From: a virus
Direction: 5' to 3' (one strand)
IMG/VR virus record: IMGVR_UViG_3300043112_000063
Coordinates: 38,046 to 102,045 of that record
Length of the DNA: 64,000 bases
Under the pieces are notes generated by a model, which had not been told where the DNA came from, made no database searches, and worked only from the letters and a program-made list of their open reading frames with translations. This document shows, one piece after another, positions 4,097-31,897 of the stretch (its first letter is position 1; each line of letters starts with the position of its first letter). A program made the translations under genes and the position numbers.

Positions 4097-4172
4097 GTAT
4101 CCGTAGCTTAACTGGAAAAGCATTGGTCTACGGAACCAAAGGATGAAGGTTCGACTCCTTTCGGATATGCCA
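4097..4172 (+). tRNA. tRNA-Arg(ACG)
   Basis: TTGGT-CT ACG GA-ACCAA; CCA. Confidence 0.95.
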
Positions 4173-4175
4173 TAT

Positions 4176-4305
4176 GGCGAGATGGCGGAAATACGTTAGA
4201 CGTACCCTCAGGAAAGAGGGGAAGGTAATAGGATAATTAGGTGAAGTCGACTATAAACTAGTTACAAATAACTTCGTGTAGGTTCAAATCCTACTCTCGC
4301 TACCA
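4176..4305 (+). ncRNA. 130-nt tRNA-like RNA (Leu-like acceptor and D/T arms, no canonical anticodon loop, very long extra arm)
   Basis: GGCGAGA/TCTCGCT-ACCA; T-arm GTAGG-TTCAAAT-CCTAC; hairpin CCCTC-AGGAAA-GAGGG; ~55-nt GAAG...CTTC arm. Confidence 0.8.
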
Positions 4306-4412
4306 TTAAAAATAAAGGTTAATAGTAAGTAGAGGAGATTAATTATTTACTATTGTAAAGAACTGAAAACCCGTTTAATCAATGTTTGCCGAGGCAGTTC
4401 TTCCCTTATATA

Positions 4413-4487
4413 CACGCAGTAGCCAAGAGGAAAGGCGGTAGGTTGCAAACCTGTCTATCGTGGGTTCGATTCCCATCTGCGTGTCCA
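4413..4487 (+). tRNA. tRNA-Cys(GCA)
   Basis: GTAGG-TT GCA AA-CCTGT; U73 discriminator; CCA. Confidence 0.93.
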
Positions 4488-4682: not shown

Positions 4683-4904
4683 ATGTTTAGATTAGAATAT
4701 ATCAATAGAAATACTACAAACAAGTGGGAGTTTATTGACAACTTTAAAACGGAAAAGGAAGCACACGATAATATGAAAGAGTTTTTTCGTAAGCATAACT
4801 TTACTTCTTACTATTTAAGAATGATGGCTGAAGACGACGAAGGTTATAAATGGTATGATTTTGGTAGTCACAGTCAATTCTACAGAATCAAAGAAGTACA
4901 ATAA
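4683..4904 (+). CDS. Hypothetical protein
   Basis: SD AAGGGAG; 73 aa. Confidence 0.75.
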   Translation: MFRLEYINRNTTNKWEFIDNFKTEKEAHDNMKEFFRKHNFTSYYLRMMAEDDEGYKWYDFGSHSQFYRIKEVQ

Positions 4905-5100: not shown

Positions 5101-5494
5101 GGGGTTGTACTGGATTCGACAGAGTAATAAGAGTATAATTAGCATAGGTTCGGTGGAACTAAAACACACGATTAAATAATCGGAAACTTATTTACAAAAG
5201 CAGTTAGTTGGGTAAAGAGTTTATTCTCTAGACCAACTGTTGCACTTTCAGTCTAAGAAGAGATTGAACGGTTTACTACAATTTTAGTTATTATTTGTAG
5301 ATAAACTGACAGTAAAATAACTAGCTCTATTCGATGTCGGGAGGGTAGAGATGTAAATGGCCGATGAATTGTTGCGTGGTGTTTGTTTATTTAAAAACGT
5401 AATGGATTCTAAAATAAAAGAAAATAAACTAACTATGTAGAATATTGTATCACTGTTATTGTGGACAGGGGTTCAACTCCCCTCAACTCCACCA
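5101..5494 (+). ncRNA. ssrA: tmRNA; predicted tag (A)GNLFTKAVSWVKSLFSRPTVALSV at 5182-5256
   Basis: 5' GGGGTTGTACTGGATTCGAC; 3' GACAGGGGTTCAACTCCCCTCAACTCCACCA; G3-U70 pair; 394 nt; short reading frame after ATAATC. Confidence 0.95.
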
Positions 5495-5968: not shown

Positions 5969-5974
5969 TAAACA

Positions 5975-6000
5975 AGACAGTCACTTTGTTGACTGTTTTT
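5975..6000 (+). terminator. Intrinsic terminator ending the tRNA region
   Basis: GACAGTCA/TGACTGTT stem plus T-run. Confidence 0.65.
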
Positions 6001-6074: not shown

Positions 6075-8975
6075 ATTAATACATTATACATAAATATAGG
6101 AAAGAAAATACATACAACAGGAAGAAGTCCTAGAGCTTTGTATTTAACCTGTGATTTTAACCTTTCCATAATACATAAAATATTAGGACTTAAAACTAAA
6201 TACTATCATCCAAACTTGGAAATGTGGGAAGTACCATTTGGAGATTTAGACTTAGTTCAGTACACATTTGCAGAGGATAATATCGTAACAAATGACGATA
6301 AGATACAAAAGAAGATAGACCAATATAAAGAATCCGTTAAACCCATAATTGAAAGTGAACCAGTAAGCACATACGTTTTTAAAACAAAACCGTTTAAGCA
6401 TCAATTGGACTGTTTTTACTATGGTTTGGAACACGATAGATTTTTACTTGCGGATGACCAAGGACTTGGAAAAGCGCAACCTTTAGATAGTATTGTGTAC
6501 ACTCCAGAAGGACGAACAACAATGGGAGATATTAAACTTGGGGACGATATTTTAGGTAGAGATGGTAAAACATATAAAGTTCTTGGTGTTTATCCACAAG
6601 GTAAGAAAGATATTTATAAGATAACATTTGATGACGGTAGTGTTGTCGAGACTTGTGATGAGCATTTGTGGACGGTTAAAAATACTTCGCGTAAAAAAAT
6701 GGAAAATCCTTGGTTTACTACGGATTTAAAAAGTATAATGAAAACAATATCTAAAAAACAACGGTATTGGATTCCAATGACAAAACCAGTTCACTTTAAA
6801 GAAACAAGTATTCCTTTACATCCGTATTTAATTGGCGTATTATTAGGAGACGGAGGAATAACAAAGTCAGCTTTTCTAACTACAGCAGATAAGGAAATCC
6901 ACGACAATGTCGTTAGTTATTTACCAAAAAACCACGAGTTGAAAAAAGTTTCTAAGTATAGTTATTGTATTGTAAATGGTGGCAGTTTTAATTCTAACAA
7001 TGTTAAAATATATACACAGGATAAATCTAAGTTATTATTTTCTGGGAATATAAACGAAGGTGCGAAGTGGCTAATAGATAATAAGTACTCAAAATCTAAA
7101 TACTGTAAGAAGTATTTACATCATTCTTTATTAACACTTAGTCCTATACGATATGGACTTTATATTGAAAATGAAGAACCAAAGTATAGAGGCAATAATA
7201 AAGTAGTTAATTATCTAAAAGATTTAAGGTTACTTGGAACAAATAGTCATACAAAGTTTATTCCGGATAACTATCTATATAATAGTCTTGGTAATAGAAT
7301 TGCTTTATTACAAGGACTTATTGATACTGATGGTTACGTTTCTAAAACGGGAATTTTACAATATACATCCGTTTCAAAACAGTTAATAGAGAATGTTAAA
7401 GAATTAGTTCAGTCTTTAGGTGGAAATGCTAGATTAAGTATAAAGGATAATCAATATTATACATTAACTATTAATTTACCAGAAGAAATACAACCTTGTA
7501 GATTAAATAGAAAACTAAAGCGATACCATAAGAGAAAGCATTATTATAAACCGAGAAGAATTATTAATAAAATTGAGTTTGTTGGTAAAAAAGAGGCTCA
7601 GTGTATTAGAACGTCTGCAAAAGATAGTTTATACCTTACCGATGAATTCATAGTTACACACAACACAAAGCAAGTTATTGATTTAGCTGTAAATCGTAAG
7701 CATATGATAAATCACTGTCTTATTGTTTGTGGTGTTAATACCCTTAAATGGAATTGGCTAGAAGAAATACAGACGCATTCAAATGAGAGCGCAAAAGTAA
7801 TCGGTAGTTATGTTAATACAAAAGGACGTCTTGTGCAAGGTGGTATGGATAAAAAGTTAGAATACTTAGATTCAGATTTTGACGATTTTTTCATTATTAC
7901 AAATATGGAATCGTTAAGAAATAAAATGTTCTTGCAAAAAATGGAAAACCTTATAAGTACTGGTGAAGTAAATATGGTTGCTATTGACGAGATACATAAA
8001 ATGAAATCTTCTACAAGTAAAGTAGGTAAAGCAATTCATAAATTACAAAGTTACTATAGAGTCGGTCTCAGCGGAACACCATTAATCACAAATGCTTTAG
8101 ACTTATACAATATACTTAAATGGTTAGGAGAAGAAAATGGTACATTAACTAACTTTAAATATAATTATTGTATATTTGGAGGTTTTGGCGGAAGAGAAAT
8201 TGTCGGTTATAAAAATATGGAGGACCTAAGGCAACGTGTTGAAAACATACAACTTAGGCGACTAAAAGAAGACGTATTTGATTTACCACCAAAACTACAT
8301 CAAAATGTTTATGTAGAATTAGAAGGTAAACAAAGAAAACTTTATAAACTAATTGAAGCGGAATTAATAGAAAAAATAAACGATATTGTTCTTAGTCCAA
8401 ATCCTTTAGCGAAGTTAACTAGACTAAGACAGGTTACAAGTGCTCCTGGAATATTAGACGAAGATACTGGTTATGGGGCTAAGATAGATAGACTTGTTGA
8501 AATAGTAGATGAAGTAACTACGCAAGGACATAAAGTATTAGTTTATAGTAACTGGACACAAGTTTTACATCAAGTTAAAAAGGCGTTGGACCACCATAAT
8601 CCTTTGATGTACACAGGAGAACAAAACGAGAGTATTAGAAACCAAAATAAAAACACTTTCCAAAACGATGAAAGTAGAAAAGTTATTGTTGGTACAGTTG
8701 GTGCTATGGGAACTGGTATTACATTAAATAAAGGTAGTTATGTTATCTTCTTAGATGTTCCGTGGTCACCACAAGATAAAAAACAAGCGGAAGATAGAGC
8801 ACATAGAATTGGAACAAATCATACAGTTAATGTACTAACATTTATTACTAGAGATACTGTTGATGAATATATAGAAGAAATAGTTTACAAGAAGAGTGAA
8901 TTGAGTAATTATTTAGTAGACGGAAAAATTGAAAATAACGCTAAACTTCTTGTTAAATCATTACTTGGATTGTAA
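6075..8975 (+). CDS. SNF2-family (DEAD/DEAH superfamily 2) helicase containing an intein
   Basis: LLADDQGLGK|T Walker A split by intein, DEIH, SGTP, QAEDRAHRIG; start proposed at ATT 6075 (track uses TTG 6138). Confidence 0.92.
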   Translation: MNTLYINIGKKIHTTGRSPRALYLTCDFNLSIIHKILGLKTKYYHPNLEMWEVPFGDLDLVQYTFAEDNIVTNDDKIQKKIDQYKESVKPIIESEPVSTYVFKTKPFKHQLDCFYYGLEHDRFLLADDQGLGKAQPLDSIVYTPEGRTTMGDIKLGDDILGRDGKTYKVLGVYPQGKKDIYKITFDDGSVVETCDEHLWTVKNTSRKKMENPWFTTDLKSIMKTISKKQRYWIPMTKPVHFKETSIPLHPYLIGVLLGDGGITKSAFLTTADKEIHDNVVSYLPKNHELKKVSKYSYCIVNGGSFNSNNVKIYTQDKSKLLFSGNINEGAKWLIDNKYSKSKYCKKYLHHSLLTLSPIRYGLYIENEEPKYRGNNKVVNYLKDLRLLGTNSHTKFIPDNYLYNSLGNRIALLQGLIDTDGYVSKTGILQYTSVSKQLIENVKELVQSLGGNARLSIKDNQYYTLTINLPEEIQPCRLNRKLKRYHKRKHYYKPRRIINKIEFVGKKEAQCIRTSAKDSLYLTDEFIVTHNTKQVIDLAVNRKHMINHCLIVCGVNTLKWNWLEEIQTHSNESAKVIGSYVNTKGRLVQGGMDKKLEYLDSDFDDFFIITNMESLRNKMFLQKMENLISTGEVNMVAIDEIHKMKSSTSKVGKAIHKLQSYYRVGLSGTPLITNALDLYNILKWLGEENGTLTNFKYNYCIFGGFGGREIVGYKNMEDLRQRVENIQLRRLKEDVFDLPPKLHQNVYVELEGKQRKLYKLIEAELIEKINDIVLSPNPLAKLTRLRQVTSAPGILDEDTGYGAKIDRLVEIVDEVTTQGHKVLVYSNWTQVLHQVKKALDHHNPLMYTGEQNESIRNQNKNTFQNDESRKVIVGTVGAMGTGITLNKGSYVIFLDVPWSPQDKKQAEDRAHRIGTNHTVNVLTFITRDTVDEYIEEIVYKKSELSNYLVDGKIENNAKLLVKSLLGL
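6474..7664 (+). mobile_element. Class 3 intein (397 aa) with LAGLIDADG endonuclease
   Basis: Starts Ala (AQPLDS), TCDEHLW block B, AQC block F, VTHN|T end; LIGVLLGDG and LQGLIDTDG motifs. Confidence 0.93.
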
Positions 8976-18853: not shown

Positions 18854-19130
18854 TAAAGTAATTAAAAAGATTAAAAGTTTACATAAATTAGTTACTCCTA
18901 CTTTTAGAGAATACGAAACAGAACTTAAAACCTTTATTAGTCGGTATGGATATGATGCGGACACATTTAAAATAATGGATACTATGTGGCACATAATTGT
19001 TTATGAAAAAGAAACACGGACATTATGTGCCGTCATTAAAGTTGGCTTTAGAGGTAAGGAACATTGTACGACGTATAATGTTAAATTGTATATGAAGGAG
19101 AAGACTATTGAAAAAGATTTTATTGTATAG
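18834..19130 (+). CDS. Hypothetical protein between polA and queC
   Basis: Overlaps both neighbours in operon. Confidence 0.65.
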   Translation: MLMNKHNKVIKKIKSLHKLVTPTFREYETELKTFISRYGYDADTFKIMDTMWHIIVYEKETRTLCAVIKVGFRGKEHCTTYNVKLYMKEKTIEKDFIV

Positions 19131-19842
19131 TGGCGGACTCGATTCTTGGCTAATTAATAAAATATGGAAACCAGATATTAAGATATATGTTGATATTAAT
19201 GGTGCATATAGTAAAGAAGAGATTTCAAAGCTGCCAGAAGATGTAATTGTAGAAAAATTAGATTTAGGAAAATGGGAGCTACCTAATAAAATAATCCCAA
19301 TGAGAAACTTATATTTCTTAATGGTAGCAAGCAATTACGCTAAAGACGACAAGTACGAACAGTACGAAATATGTCTAGGGGCAACAGCTGGAGACCGTGT
19401 ACTTGATAAAAGCGTTGAATTTGCAGATAAAGTAACTGATTTATTCAACTATTTATACCAAGAACAATGGTGGACTAAACAAAAACACTTTAGAATAAAT
19501 CTCGATTTTAAAGATTACACAAAAGGAGATTTATTAGAACAATACTTAACTATGAACGGTACTTTAGAAGAGGCTTGGGAAAGTAGTTTTAGTTGTTATA
19601 ATCCACAAGAAGACGGTACAGAATGCTGGTCTTGTAAACCTTGTTTCCGTAAGTTTGTTACATTTTATATGGAAGGTATGACATTCGATAAGGAAAAAGA
19701 AGTTCGTATTTTAAACTACTTAGAAAAAAATATCATTCCAAAAATAAAAAGTGGTTCTTATGGACGTGGAAAAAAAGAAGAAGGAGATATTGTGACTGTT
19801 TACGAACACTTACGTTCTAAGTATCACAATATAAAAGCGTAA
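19108..19842 (+). CDS. queC: 7-cyano-7-deazaguanine synthase
   Basis: YSGGLDS PP-loop, IPMRN, SCY...CWSCKPC zinc site. Confidence 0.9.
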   Translation: MKKILLYSGGLDSWLINKIWKPDIKIYVDINGAYSKEEISKLPEDVIVEKLDLGKWELPNKIIPMRNLYFLMVASNYAKDDKYEQYEICLGATAGDRVLDKSVEFADKVTDLFNYLYQEQWWTKQKHFRINLDFKDYTKGDLLEQYLTMNGTLEEAWESSFSCYNPQEDGTECWSCKPCFRKFVTFYMEGMTFDKEKEVRILNYLEKNIIPKIKSGSYGRGKKEEGDIVTVYEHLRSKYHNIKA

Positions 19843-28097: not shown

Positions 28098-29012
28098 ATG
28101 AAGAAATACCGAAAAATTATTGCTTACCCAAAACCTAAGGCAAAAGAAGCATTAGATAGTTTTAAGTCTGTTGTTATTTCTGAAAAAATTGATGGAGCAA
28201 ATGCAAGTTTTAAACTATCTGAAGATGGTAAATCAATTGAATGCTTTAGTAGAAATAATCAACTAAATGAAGATAATGACTTACGAGGTTTTTACGATTG
28301 GGTAATGGATAATGTAAAAACAGACAACTTGTTTCCACACGTTATCTACTTTGGCGAGTGGCTAGTTAAACATAAAGTAGGTTACAAAAAAGAAGCCTAC
28401 AATAAGTTTTATTTATATGATTTGTATTCTGAATTAGAGGGCGAATATCAATCTTGTTACAACGAGGTTGGAACTTATTTTATTCAGACAACTAAAGACG
28501 CATTCTTTGCTCCCGTAAGGTATGCTGGATTACTTCCAGAAAATGCCGTTGAGTTTATTCAATCTTATATGGAAAAAAGTACCTTGTCGGATGGTAAACC
28601 AGAGGGCGTGGTTGTTAAGGACTATGCTTATGTCAATAGATTTGGAGAACAGACAGCAATTAAGTTTGTTAACAAAGAGTTTAAAGAAAACCAAACACCC
28701 AAAAAAAGAAGAACACCACCAAAATTAAGTGAAAGAGAAAAAATGTTATACGAATTAGTCGAAGACCGCATTAATGAAATAAGCGTTCAAAAATTCGTTG
28801 ATAAAATGATTGATGAAAGTATTATAGATAAACGTTGGAAAGATGAAGATTTAAGTACTTTGTTAAGTAAGTTGTCTAATTTGTTTAGAGTGGACGTTAT
28901 TGAAGAAGTATTCGATGATAAAGACTTAGATAAAGACGACTTAAAGTTTATTAATAAAAAAATAAGTTATTTATTTGTTACAGAGTTAAAACAAATCTAT
29001 TTTAAAGGTTAA
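28098..29012 (+). CDS. RNA ligase (Rnl2-like)
   Basis: EKIDGAN, SRN, FGEW, YD, EGVVVK, KFV. Confidence 0.85.
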   Translation: MKKYRKIIAYPKPKAKEALDSFKSVVISEKIDGANASFKLSEDGKSIECFSRNNQLNEDNDLRGFYDWVMDNVKTDNLFPHVIYFGEWLVKHKVGYKKEAYNKFYLYDLYSELEGEYQSCYNEVGTYFIQTTKDAFFAPVRYAGLLPENAVEFIQSYMEKSTLSDGKPEGVVVKDYAYVNRFGEQTAIKFVNKEFKENQTPKKRRTPPKLSEREKMLYELVEDRINEISVQKFVDKMIDESIIDKRWKDEDLSTLLSKLSNLFRVDVIEEVFDDKDLDKDDLKFINKKISYLFVTELKQIYFKG

Positions 29013-29192: not shown

Positions 29193-29771
29193 TTGAAAAG
29201 AGTAGAAACAACATTCACATTTAGGGAGTATAATTATCTTTACCTATTCGGTATTGATGGAGAAAAACTTCAACCGTACAAAACATTTTCTGGAATTATA
29301 GAATCACACGAACATTTGTCAGAAGAGGACGAAGCAGATTTGTATATGTTATCTTTAGGGGAACGTATTAAACAAAAGAATCCACACTATGACCCAGAGG
29401 AAGAATCTGACGTAGAATATTTCAAAGTTAGTTACTTACCTAAAACAATTAAAAACGAAGATGGGGAAGAGGAAGAAATTCATTACGTAATTGAAAAGAA
29501 TGTAAATTACGATAAGTTTGAAGACACAGACCACACTAACAAAACACCAGTTGAAAGTGCTAAACAGGCTATGGGCTTTATTCACAATACAGCAAGTAAA
29601 TACACTAAACATAATAAAGAAGTGAGAAAAACGTCAGAGCAAGATGACCCTACATTAAGATACTGGCTAACGTTAACTTTAGACGAGGAAGAGTTAGAAA
29701 AGATGAAAGAAGACGGTAGTGATATGAGTACAAGTTTACAAGCCGTTGACTTCAAGTTTTTCTATAAATAA
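29193..29771 (+). CDS. Acidic hypothetical protein
   Basis: Promoter at 29122 and SD GAGGAG upstream. Confidence 0.75.
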   Translation: MKRVETTFTFREYNYLYLFGIDGEKLQPYKTFSGIIESHEHLSEEDEADLYMLSLGERIKQKNPHYDPEEESDVEYFKVSYLPKTIKNEDGEEEEIHYVIEKNVNYDKFEDTDHTNKTPVESAKQAMGFIHNTASKYTKHNKEVRKTSEQDDPTLRYWLTLTLDEEELEKMKEDGSDMSTSLQAVDFKFFYK

Positions 29772-29772
29772 T

Positions 29773-30939
29773 ATGAAAACAAATGAGCAAGCTTTTGTAG
29801 AGTTATTTAATAAATCCCCACAAAGAGTAATTAACAAACTGGACAAATACGTAGCGGACGGATATATCAAATCAAACGTAAATTCTTTTTTCCCAGAATT
29901 AACGATATACAACTATTCTGAAAAAACAACATTTGAAAGAAAATGGAATACATATACTTTGGCTTGTAGGGGCTTAGTTATTGATAAAAAAGAGTTAAGA
30001 ATAGTTGCTATGCCCTTCTCAAAATTCTTTAATTTAGACGAACTTAAAAATACAGATTATGAACACTTGAGTTGTGTAGAACCAACACAAACATATGAAA
30101 CGTATATTAAGATGGACGGCAGTCTAGGTATTGGCTTTGTACATAAGAACACATTTATATGGTGTACAAGAGGTAGTTTCGATAGTGAACAGGCGAGATT
30201 TGCTAATTTTTATATGCGAGAAAACTTTACTGAAGAAGCGTTAGAGAATTTGGCTTTTGACTATGAAGGGATGACAATACTCGCTGAAATTATTTATCCA
30301 AATAATAGAATTGTTGTTGATTATGGAGAAACAAAAGGCTTAATAATTTTAGGTATGATTAGAAATAGTAATGGTATTGAAATGAATTACCGAGATTTAT
30401 GCTTAGAAGGTTTTATGTGTAACCTTCCAGTAGTTGATAAGTATGAAGGAAATACTAACATTAAAGAGTTATTGAAATCTGCTAAAGAGTGGGACAAAAA
30501 TATGGAGGGTGTTGTTATTAAGTACGCAAACGGAAAACGTCTGAAATTAAAAGGAGCAGAGTATTTACGAGTTCATAAACTAAGATATGGTTTTAGTATG
30601 AAACAACAAGTAGAATTATGGAAGGACCAAATACACGAAAACTATTTAGCGGAAATAGACGAAGAGTTTAGAGATGAATTAGATGTCTTATATAAAACAC
30701 TAGACGTGGTTTTTAATTCTTACGTGTTAGAAGTTATGCGTATGGTTAACGATGTTGAGGTTTTAAAATTAGATAGGTCAGACATATATAAACACTTTGA
30801 ATCTAAAGGTAAAAATAAAACACTTATTGCGTGTGTTTTCTCAGTGTTAGATAATAAAGGCTATAAACAAAAAATACGTGAGTATATGTATAAAGAATAC
30901 CGAAGTATATTGAACGTTAAGGAGTTGGAAGATGAATAA
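29773..30939 (+). CDS. T4 Rnl1-like RNA ligase
   Basis: CRGLV, PFSKFFN, KMDGSLG, TRGSF, EGVV, KLKGAEY. Confidence 0.9.
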   Translation: MKTNEQAFVELFNKSPQRVINKLDKYVADGYIKSNVNSFFPELTIYNYSEKTTFERKWNTYTLACRGLVIDKKELRIVAMPFSKFFNLDELKNTDYEHLSCVEPTQTYETYIKMDGSLGIGFVHKNTFIWCTRGSFDSEQARFANFYMRENFTEEALENLAFDYEGMTILAEIIYPNNRIVVDYGETKGLIILGMIRNSNGIEMNYRDLCLEGFMCNLPVVDKYEGNTNIKELLKSAKEWDKNMEGVVIKYANGKRLKLKGAEYLRVHKLRYGFSMKQQVELWKDQIHENYLAEIDEEFRDELDVLYKTLDVVFNSYVLEVMRMVNDVEVLKLDRSDIYKHFESKGKNKTLIACVFSVLDNKGYKQKIREYMYKEYRSILNVKELEDE

Positions 30940-31897
30940 ATTAATTATGATGATTGGCTTTCCTGGCGCTGGAAAAAGTCATAGAGCAAAGGAATTAAAA
31001 AGAATTGGTTACGTGGTTCACAGTAGTGATGCAATCAGAAAAGAGAAACTTGGTAACGAAAATGACCAGTCGGCTAATAATTATGTATTCAATCTTATGC
31101 GGAGTAGAACAATAGATGACCTTAAAGATGGTAAAAATGTTGTTTACGACGCAACAAACCTTAACCGAAAAATAAGAAAACATACACTTAATACCTTTAA
31201 AAAATATGTCAACAACATAAAAGCATTAGTTGTTCTTAGACCTATCGATGATATATGGAAATACAATTTAGAAAGAGGTTTTCCGGAAGACAAGTTGAAG
31301 GCTTACTTACGAAGTTTTAACCCTCCTTCAAAAGAAGAGGGCTTTACGGAAATAGAATATCATATTAGTGGAAATTCAACGTATAATTGGGACAATAGTT
31401 TAACTACAATAACCGACTTCTTTGTTGAAGCAGTTACCACAGGATATATTAGAATGGAAAATCATCCTTGGTACAAAACAATTAAAGACTACGACCAAGA
31501 TAATAGTTATCATACAAAAACATTAGACCAACATATTTATGAAGTGTCTATTAGAGCCCGTGAATTTCACGATAACGAGGTTTTATTAGCTGCCTTATTA
31601 CACGATATTGGAAAACCATATACTAAGGTTAAAAATAAACACGGTACATCTAGTTATTATGGACACGAACACGTTAGTTCTTATATGTCAGCAATACTGT
31701 TTAGTTTTCTAAACATTAGAGACGAGTTTACGAAATTAAACATAGACACAAATAAAGTACTCAACTTAATTGATTTTCATATGAGAATGCCAAATACAAA
31801 AACACCAAAAGCAAAAAATAAATTAATAAATGAAATAGGAAGAGATATGTACCCACACTTGTGTGAGCTTTTTGTGTGCGATATCTCAGGGAAGTAG
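30932..31897 (+). CDS. Polynucleotide kinase (P-loop) fused to HD domain
   Basis: GFPGAGKS, SSDAIR, YDATN; YDQDNSYH...H, ALLHDIGK, HEHVS, HM. Confidence 0.88.
   Translation: MNKLIMMIGFPGAGKSHRAKELKRIGYVVHSSDAIRKEKLGNENDQSANNYVFNLMRSRTIDDLKDGKNVVYDATNLNRKIRKHTLNTFKKYVNNIKALVVLRPIDDIWKYNLERGFPEDKLKAYLRSFNPPSKEEGFTEIEYHISGNSTYNWDNSLTTITDFFVEAVTTGYIRMENHPWYKTIKDYDQDNSYHTKTLDQHIYEVSIRAREFHDNEVLLAALLHDIGKPYTKVKNKHGTSSYYGHEHVSSYMSAILFSFLNIRDEFTKLNIDTNKVLNLIDFHMRMPNTKTPKAKNKLINEIGRDMYPHLCELFVCDISGK

Follow-up and report, generated by a model that had tools for sequence, protein, structure and literature searches.

Locus and Genomic Context

The window analysed here is a 64,000-nucleotide stretch of phage DNA with a G+C content of ~32-36%. 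It spans bases 38046-102045 of an IMG/VR phage record of 102 kb that is rated complete. The phage genome carries 25 tRNA genes that cover all 20 amino acids, and the CCA is encoded in all of them. The tRNA and tmRNA genes are scattered across genome 33.7-43.8 kb, and the auxiliary genes among them include Mom-like, RNase H-like, cold-shock, HNH, NADAR, metallophosphoesterase, and thymidylate kinase (Tmk) genes. After this tRNA island come an SNF2 helicase gene with a LAGLIDADG intein and then the replication module.

Within the tRNA cluster lies a 130-nt element on the + strand, whose parts are listed with its neighbours and homologues in Table 1. It follows the head-to-tail packing of tRNA genes, with a spacing of 3 nt from the CCA of tRNA-Arg upstream, and its L087 copy is separated by 3 nt and 4 nt from its own neighbours. 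A promoter scan found no promoter-like site inside the element, the conserved AUAAU stretch included, and the + strand shows no terminator-like site before the one at 5974-5999. The transcript of the tRNA/tmRNA operon would therefore include the element. The neighbouring genes (Tmk, NADAR, and phosphoesterase, with Mom-like, RNase H-like, and cold-shock genes upstream) gave no clue to a partner, and a model search of the window's own genome found no second copy. Between the element and tRNA-Cys lie 107 nt (4306-4412) with a two-hairpin fold (z -1.5); L087, with a gap of 4 nt, has nothing comparable, so this stretch is lineage-specific.

Several other features of the phage concern RNA or defence. 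A tmRNA gene lies within the tRNA array, and ARAGORN found no tmRNA in the loci examined from the relatives L087/L088, L095, and L096. Downstream of the replication module is an RNA-repair set comprising an Rnl2-type RNA ligase (PF09414), a T4 Rnl1-type RNA ligase (PF09511), and a protein that joins a P-loop kinase to an HD phosphohydrolase domain. In T4, an RNA-repair kit of this type is the answer to anticodon nucleases. The NADAR-domain and Mom-like proteins of the tRNA island and a QueC-like protein downstream are candidate DNA-modification or anti-defence genes. The SNF2-family helicase contains its LAGLIDADG/Hint intein at roughly residues 118-505, and the L087, L095, and L096 relatives align only to the flanks of the intein.

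Table 1. Positions of the element, its neighbouring genes, and its homologues (window coordinates unless another record is named).
Feature	Position	Strand	Evidence or remark
Acceptor stem, 5' strand (GGCGAGA)	4176-4182	+	Pair-by-pair reading; both-sided changes in 5 of 7 pairs
Leu-type D arm, 3-bp stem, 13-nt loop without G18G19	4185-4203	+	Sequence; cross-matches of model R1
Stub hairpin in place of anticodon arm, 5 bp and 6-nt loop	4205-4220	+	Sequence, MFE fold
57-nt extra arm at variable position	4221-4277	+	Sequence, fold, identity to L087 arm
T arm (GUAGG-UUCAAAU-CCUAC)	4278-4294	+	Sequence; both-sided changes in 4 of 5 pairs
Acceptor 3' strand with A73 (4302) and encoded CCA (4303-4305)	4295-4305	+	Sequence
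tRNA-Arg(ACG), CCA encoded	4097-4172	+	ARAGORN; Rfam 63.3 bits; ends 3 nt upstream of element
tRNA-Cys, next array gene	4413-4487	+	ARAGORN; in L087/L088 4 nt downstream of orthologue
tmRNA	5101-5494		Rfam 99.4 bits; ARAGORN tag peptide GNLFTKAVSWVKSLFSRPTVALSV
SNF2-family helicase	6138-8975		LAGLIDADG/Hint intein
RNA-repair set	28098-29012, 29746-30939, 30932-31897		Downstream of replication module
NADAR-domain and Mom-like genes (tRNA island) and QueC-like gene (downstream)	1194-1817, 19108-19842; genome 34426-35256		Positions given for the three genes as a set
L087-type homologue	L087 1394-1526 = L088 2075-2207 = L093		DnaB 62%; Rfam tRNA 40.7 bits, R1 55.9 bits
L096 homologue (L096/L163; 108-kb record with terminal repeats)	L096 4864-4993		DnaB 51%; R1 26.7 bits, full-length
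L095 homologue (L095/L164 phage)	L095 3921-4037		DnaB 47%; R1 21.5 bits, full-length
Second copy in L095/L164 phage	L164 947-1071		R1 22.5 bits

Anatomy of the Element

The acceptor stem GGCGAGA/TCTCGCT forms seven pairs, the first of which (G1-U72) is a G-U wobble. U8 and G9 lie between the acceptor and the D arm, and A26 follows the D arm. The D stem is GCG/CGU, and the D region (UGGCGGAA...UAGACGU) is of tRNA-Leu type. The anticodon arm is replaced by the stub hairpin CCCUC-AGGAAA-GAGGG, whose loop is closed by a C-G pair. As judged from the sequence, this 6-nt purine loop without U33 shows that the window copy cannot decode a codon. The extra arm is made up of a basal GAAG/CUUC stem, internal loops, an AAUUAG/CUAGUU stem, a 17-nt apical region with GUCGAC, and a GU linker, and contains unpaired segments of 10, 17, and 8 nt.

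Folding of the complete RNA gives the proposed cloverleaf as the minimum free energy structure (-35.6 kcal/mol, z -2.4), and 3 of 200 shuffled sequences fold equally well. Folded alone, the extra arm has weak structure (-6.9 kcal/mol, z -0.4). The element is placed beyond chance because homologues show it, not because of its folding energy.

A first-pass annotation made from the letters of the window had described a tRNA-like outline here, with acceptor stem, A73, CCA, T arm, and Leu-type D region. Direct and pair-by-pair reading confirms that outline, as well as the 5-bp stem with a 6-nt AGGAAA loop lacking U33 at the anticodon position. Some details needed correction. The "intact 7-bp acceptor" does have seven pairs, but the first is not Watson-Crick; the Leu-type signature is present in the D region, but the G18G19 doublet is missing; and the arm said to replace the variable arm with about 55 nt has the GAAG/CTTC and AATTAG/CTAGTT stems named there but measures 57 nt.

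Comparison with Established RNA Families

ARAGORN, one of the checks proposed with that annotation, called no tRNA on the element at its default threshold, with or without introns. The Rfam tRNA model (RF00005) gave no match to it at the gathering score or at E<=1 in a 6-kb search, and the isolated element scores 14.7 bits against a threshold of 29. The 7-bp acceptor stem, 5-bp T stem, and UUCRANY-type T loop of a canonical tRNA are all present, and the 7-nt anticodon loop with U33 and purine 37 is absent, AGGAAA standing in its place. With class II tRNA-Leu the element shares the Leu-type D arm, A73, and a possible A15-U48 pair; it lacks G18G19, and it contains neither a leucine anticodon (NAG or YAA) nor any other.

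An intron-bearing tRNA was rejected, since ARAGORN with the -i option makes no call at the default threshold and offers an implausible intron at 28/29 only when the threshold is lowered. Splicing to a normal tRNA, named with that annotation as a refuting outcome, likewise fails, because taking out 4221-4277 leaves the 6-nt loop as it is. The element is not a tmRNA: it has C3-G70 instead of G3-U70, its insert has no reading frame, and both ARAGORN and Rfam place a tmRNA only at 5101-5494. It has no Rfam match to YrlA (RF02553), and its termini pair as an acceptor stem that ends in CCA. Thus, the element is neither a tRNA nor a tmRNA nor a YrlA-type RNA, and no other Rfam family matches it.

Other functions for the insert were also examined and rejected. 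As a Shine-Dalgarno or anti-Shine-Dalgarno sponge, it yields duplex energies no better than those of shuffled sequences in four of five homologues (0.09 for the window copy). As an antisense regulator of the phage's own genes, its longest complement in the genome is 13 nt, compared with 11-14 nt for shuffled sequences. A small open reading frame of 26 codons is found in the insert of the L095 copy only, and the frame of its paralogue stops after one codon.

Two features of phage tRNA-like stable RNAs, by contrast, are present. The element is located in a tRNA cluster, co-oriented with and close to the tRNAs, and it has a tRNA-like acceptor/T domain, a size greater than that of a tRNA, and no usable anticodon.

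Homologues in Related Phages

Direct searches yielded no useful relative. No close relative was found by blastn among INPHARED phages. The exact 28-nt pattern of the 3' end matched only one unrelated tRNA(CAT) in IMG/VR, and the exact 16-mer of the stub hairpin gave only three chance matches. Thymidylate kinase as a probe yielded no relatives in viral contigs, and the element was absent from the 80 metagenome Tmk loci listed, which were 40-61% identical to the query. A motif pattern produced 62 matches in bacterial and archaeal genomes, none of which was confirmed by the model, so these are chance. Matches to the model in L203-L228 consist of an ORF end plus terminator and are not homologues.

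The clade was found in IMG/VR through its DnaB helicase, followed by alignments of DnaB and of the C-terminal half of SNF2. The covariance model R1 was built from the window's sequence and the proposed structure, and its L096 and L095 matches were found with filters off. This covariance search, also proposed with the first-pass annotation, led to homologues in related phages: five distinct homologous sequences of 115-133 nt are present in four phage lineages whose DnaB proteins are ~47-63% identical. The gene order of tRNA island, SNF2, replication genes, and DnaB is common to all lineages. In L087/L088, Rfam itself calls a 130-nt "tRNA" between tRNA-Arg(UCU) and tRNA-Cys, the same slot as in the window; relative to that slot, the window has a kinase gene and tRNA-Arg(ACG) added upstream. 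Among normal tRNAs, those matched best by R1 are tRNA-Leu genes (38.4 bits).

Further unusual tRNA-like genes occur in these and other phages. Between tRNA-Ser and tRNA-Lys, L087 has another oversized tRNA-like gene (1706-1824, = L088 2387-2505), which scores 43.6 bits against Rfam tRNA. Its acceptor, D, and T arms are normal, its 5-bp anticodon stem encloses a 51-nt "loop" with a hairpin, and its last bases are AUCA; the window has a 73-codon ORF (4683-4904) at the counterpart of this place. Related islands contain further non-canonical tRNA-like genes at L096 1005-1105, L096 4763-4851, and L095 4857-4932, of which one is a 101-nt tRNA(CAU) with a long variable arm and two are tRNA-shaped units lacking a canonical anticodon loop.

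A conserved tRNA-like RNA of 115-121 nt is encoded by another group of phages, with genomes of ~66 kb (L138 11494-11613, L144, L148, L152, L154; L146 12138-12256). This RNA contains a second, internal T-arm-like hairpin (CUGG-UUCGACU-CCAG), and T5 RNA2 has an internal T-arm-like hairpin too. A 145-nt unit follows tRNA-Ser(UGA) at L149 4841-4989, with the same element in L150-L156; the 3' portion of this unit amounts to a mini-tRNA of ~62 nt in which the acceptor, D, and T arms are present and the anticodon arm is missing (GCACACA...UGUGUGC). L092 9966-10085 (= L090, L094) is a G+C-rich multi-hairpin unit of ~120 nt that lies 10 nt after tRNA-Ser(UGA) and has a T-arm-like hairpin at its end. 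The motif-pattern match in L090/L092/L094 is probably due to chance.

Covariation and Selection

Pairing was scored on an alignment of the five sequences to the model, which was fitted to the structure and so favours pairing. Two MAFFT alignments (A2 and A5) were out of structural register and were left out of the pair counts. In the model alignment, standard pairs occupy 95.5% of cells, compared with 68% after shuffling and 38-49% when the partner strand is slid. The covariation score is 0.76 (0.27 shuffled, 0.09-0.17 with partner slid), both-sided changes occur in 23 of 30 pairs, and none of 500 shuffles attains the observed values. The acceptor, T, D, and basal extra-arm helices are all kept by compensatory changes. 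The acceptor and T helices, however, are set by distance from the ends. Each of the five acceptor 5' strands (GGCGAGA, UACGAGA, UGGAAGA, GAGUAGA, and GAACGGG) is accompanied by its complement.

Sequence identity to the closest homologue leads in the same direction. The window element is 74% identical to the L087-type copy. Nine orthologous tRNAs range from 66% to 97%, so the element falls among them, whereas three spacers between tRNA genes reach only 47-53%, the level of shuffled sequence. By segment, identity to L087 is 72% for the acceptor 5' strand and D arm (shuffled 56 +/- 5.0), 82% for the T arm and acceptor 3' strand (56 +/- 5.6), 72% for the extra arm (59 +/- 3.5), and 53% for the stub hairpin (46 +/- 7).

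The covariation and the tRNA-like identity amid randomised spacers therefore indicate that the RNA is maintained by selection, the one part that is not maintained being the anticodon position. Comparison across the family shows selection keeping the acceptor, the T arm, the Leu-type D arm and core, and a large arm at the variable position, and leaving the anticodon position free to change.

Variation Among the Homologues

The anticodon position differs in every lineage. In the window it is a closed hairpin with a 6-nt loop, and in L096 it is a 4-bp hairpin with a tetraloop. Both L095/L164 paralogues carry an identical, essentially unpaired 17-nt stretch (CUGAAGAAAAUAAUGUG) at this position, with the remainder of the two sequences diverged to 67%. 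The L087-type copy has a canonical arm with loop CUUCUAA (UCU) and forms a full cloverleaf. Its UCU arm is equal at 15 of 17 positions to that of the adjacent tRNA-Arg(UCU), which suggests a secondary copy from this neighbour, and the L087-type lineage may still be able to decode. Across the four lineages, the non-decoding state is probably ancestral because neither outgroup has an anticodon.

A large arm of 44-61 nt occupies the variable position in all five homologues. Its sequence is common to the window and L087 only (UAGGUGAA, UCGA, and AUAA motifs), and there is no similarity among the deeper lineages. At the apex, GUCGAC in the window corresponds to CUCGAG in L087, a compensatory G-C to C-G change around a UCGA tetraloop, and L096 has UAC-UGCA-GUA; the apex, which lies outside model R1, may therefore be read as paired.

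The ends are less constant. CCA is encoded in two of the five (window and L087) and the others end in ACUA, GCCC, and UAAA, compared with an encoded CCA in 90-100% of ordinary tRNAs of these phages. Three copies have A as the discriminator, one has G, and one has U. The Leu-type D signature (GGCGGAA/GGCGAAA) is kept in four of the five, as is U48 for the Levitt pair, and by inspection an A15-U48 pair is possible in four.

These comparisons bear on broader claims of the first-pass annotation. That the element is no product of random decay is upheld by compensatory changes in helices across lineages whose spacers are randomised, and its description as a non-decoding, tRNA-shaped, selected RNA agrees with the sequence and the homologues. 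Relatives had been suggested as the place to look for an ordinary tRNA-Leu at this site, and they have the large insert too. The absence of an anticodon does not extend to the family as a rule, since the nearest orthologue (L087/L088/L093) has the CUUCUAA loop with UCU. Chargeability, likewise, is not a conserved design feature, given CCA in two of five homologues, the mixed discriminator, and the missing G18G19 of the window copy. An aptamer-like extra domain is disfavoured by the weak folding energy and by sequence conservation that reaches no further than the closest lineage. The proposed ligand for T-box/RelA-type sensors is unlikely, as such roles need an anticodon.

Interpretation

The element is probably a non-decoding small-RNA gene derived from a class II tRNA-Leu, belonging to a small family in a clade of roughly 100-kb phages with a tRNA island and falling within the class of phage "tRNA-like stable RNAs". 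The acceptor/T minihelix is the part of a tRNA needed by RNase P and the 3'-end enzymes. Because this minihelix is intact, the RNA would be released as its neighbours are, with RNase P cutting at G1 and 3' trimming to the encoded CCA, and once released it should be stable, like a tRNA.

The Leu-type D arm and core, kept within the family and recurring in T5 RNA1, suggest that some protein recognises a tRNA-Leu-like upper body. The upper body could serve as a handle for tRNA-binding proteins, making the RNA a mimic or decoy in a tRNA conflict between phage and host, with the lineage-specific arm barring it from translation and giving specificity. This mode of action is put forward tentatively; the context counted for it is the presence of 25 tRNAs, a tmRNA, two RNA ligases, and the kinase/HD protein in the same phage. 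Leucylation of the window copy is possible, in view of A73, the possible A15-U48 pair, and the CCA. However, recognition by LeuRS is doubtful because CCA and A73 are not conserved in the family and the window copy lacks G18G19. A further, unlikely reading has the RNA undergo tRNA-like maturation and leucylation, stay off the ribosome because of its stub and arm, and act as a counter-defence decoy or inhibitor that absorbs a host tRNA-directed immune effector or its sensor, beside the phage tRNAs, tmRNA, and RNA-repair enzymes. If true, it would give a first function to the class that includes T4 species 1 and T5 RNA1.

Next in rank after a mimic or decoy, with a modest chance of being right, is the proposal that the tRNA body serves only for processing and stability (RNase P, CCA enzyme, exonuclease resistance) and that the extra arm is the active part, binding a protein or RNA through large single-stranded loops. 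In the two closest lineages the arm is indeed more similar than background (72% vs 59 +/- 3.5), it offers unpaired segments of 10, 17, and 8 nt, and in the deeper lineages the arms are wholly different while the body is constant. Nonetheless, a mere handle needs no Leu-type D arm, yet one is kept in four of five homologues together with U48 in four of five, and T5 RNA1 has a closely related D arm (CCGGAAUUGGUAGACGG). The arm also shows no antisense target in the phage genome, no Rfam motif, and no Shine-Dalgarno mimicry.

The element might instead be a degenerate tRNA kept solely as a site for RNase P and 3' trimming that parts tRNA-Arg from the downstream RNAs. Spacers to the neighbouring tRNAs of just 3-4 nt and the superior preservation of the acceptor and T helices would fit, but this is quite unlikely: neighbouring tRNAs have their own RNase P sites, so that a 130-nt spacer is needless, the D arm and extra arm are also constrained, and one genome retains two diverged paralogues with an identical 17-nt linker.

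A working decoding tRNA, reached after removal of an intervening sequence or by means of an unconventional anticodon loop, is very unlikely. The L087/L088/L093 orthologue does form a full cloverleaf with UCU and exceeds the Rfam tRNA threshold at 40.7 bits. In the window, however, the loop is 6 nt without U33 and is unchanged by removal of the 57-nt arm, ARAGORN with introns finds nothing at its default threshold, and phage tRNAs already span all 20 amino acids. An arm of 57 nt is far below the size of a group I intron. The UCU arm of L087 itself resembles that of the neighbouring tRNA-Arg (15/17 nt), suggesting secondary copying. In favour of a decoding tRNA, class II Leu bodies with foreign anticodons are reported from nematodes (nev-tRNAs, PMC3333845).

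Finally, a decaying tRNA-Leu pseudogene with an insertion would account for the missing ARAGORN and Rfam calls, the 6-nt loop, the loss of G18G19, and the weakly folded insert, but is scarcely credible given compensatory changes in every helix across lineages with randomised intergenic DNA and an insert of 44-61 nt at the same position in all five homologues.

Comparison with Known Systems

To our knowledge, stable tRNA-like RNAs of phages T4 and T5 have been known for decades with no function assigned. The element is a variant of this known, unexplained class, and its closest known RNAs are T5 RNA1 and T4 rnaC. It extends the class in several ways. The covariation shows selection acting on such RNAs in uncultured phages whose lineage is quite different from those of T4 and T5. 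A tRNA-Leu-type body can be kept while decoding is given up, with a large insert possible at either the variable or the anticodon position, and hypotheses are narrowed to recognition of a tRNA upper body by an enzyme or defence protein. For annotation, gaps in phage tRNA arrays can conceal real RNA genes overlooked by tRNA finders.

Compared with bacterial class II tRNA-Leu (RF00005), the element has the same 7/5 acceptor and T arms, U8, A14, D arm (UGGCGGAA...UAGACG), possible A15-U48 pair, A73, CCA, and arm at the variable position. Unlike tRNA-Leu, it has no 7-nt loop, U33, Leu anticodon, or G18G19, its variable arm is 57 nt instead of roughly 10-20 nt, and it falls below the Rfam threshold. 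With tmRNA, which the same phage encodes, it shares an anticodon-less tRNA-like acceptor/T domain and a large insert, but it differs in C3-G70, in the lack of a reading frame in the insert, and in its length of just 130 nt. The nev-tRNAs (PMC3333845) combine a class II Leu-like body with the anticodon of another amino acid and are reported to decode. They bear only on the L087-type orthologue. Their variable arms are normal, and the window copy has no anticodon.

T4 species 1 and 2 (rnaC, 139 nt; rnaD, 119 nt) are likewise small stable RNAs in a tRNA cluster, directly after tRNA-Arg. The 3' end of rnaC consists of a canonical T arm and an acceptor-like strand, as in the element. Unlike the element, rnaC lacks a Leu-type D arm, has imperfect acceptor pairing and two long hairpins in the middle of the RNA, and matches R1 weakly (11.7 bits).

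T5 RNA1 (rna1, NC_005859 30501-30644) is annotated together with RNA2 as a "tRNA-like stable RNA with unknown functions". RNA1 is about 134-144 nt long and, like the element, lies in a phage tRNA cluster. It also resembles the element in combining an acceptor-like stem with a canonical T arm and a Leu-type D arm (UGCCGGAAUUGGUAGACGG) and in lacking an anticodon. R1 matches it over its full length at 25.6 bits, as it does the divergent homologues, although ordinary tRNAs score similarly and the insert of RNA1 sits at another position than that of the element. The large insert of RNA1 is at the position of the anticodon arm and its variable arm is of normal class II size, whereas the element has a 16-nt stub and a 57-nt variable arm; RNA1 has G18G19 and no encoded CCA, and the element is the opposite on both counts. 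The inserts have no sequence similarity, the hosts differ, and the likeness of the two RNAs does not establish common descent.
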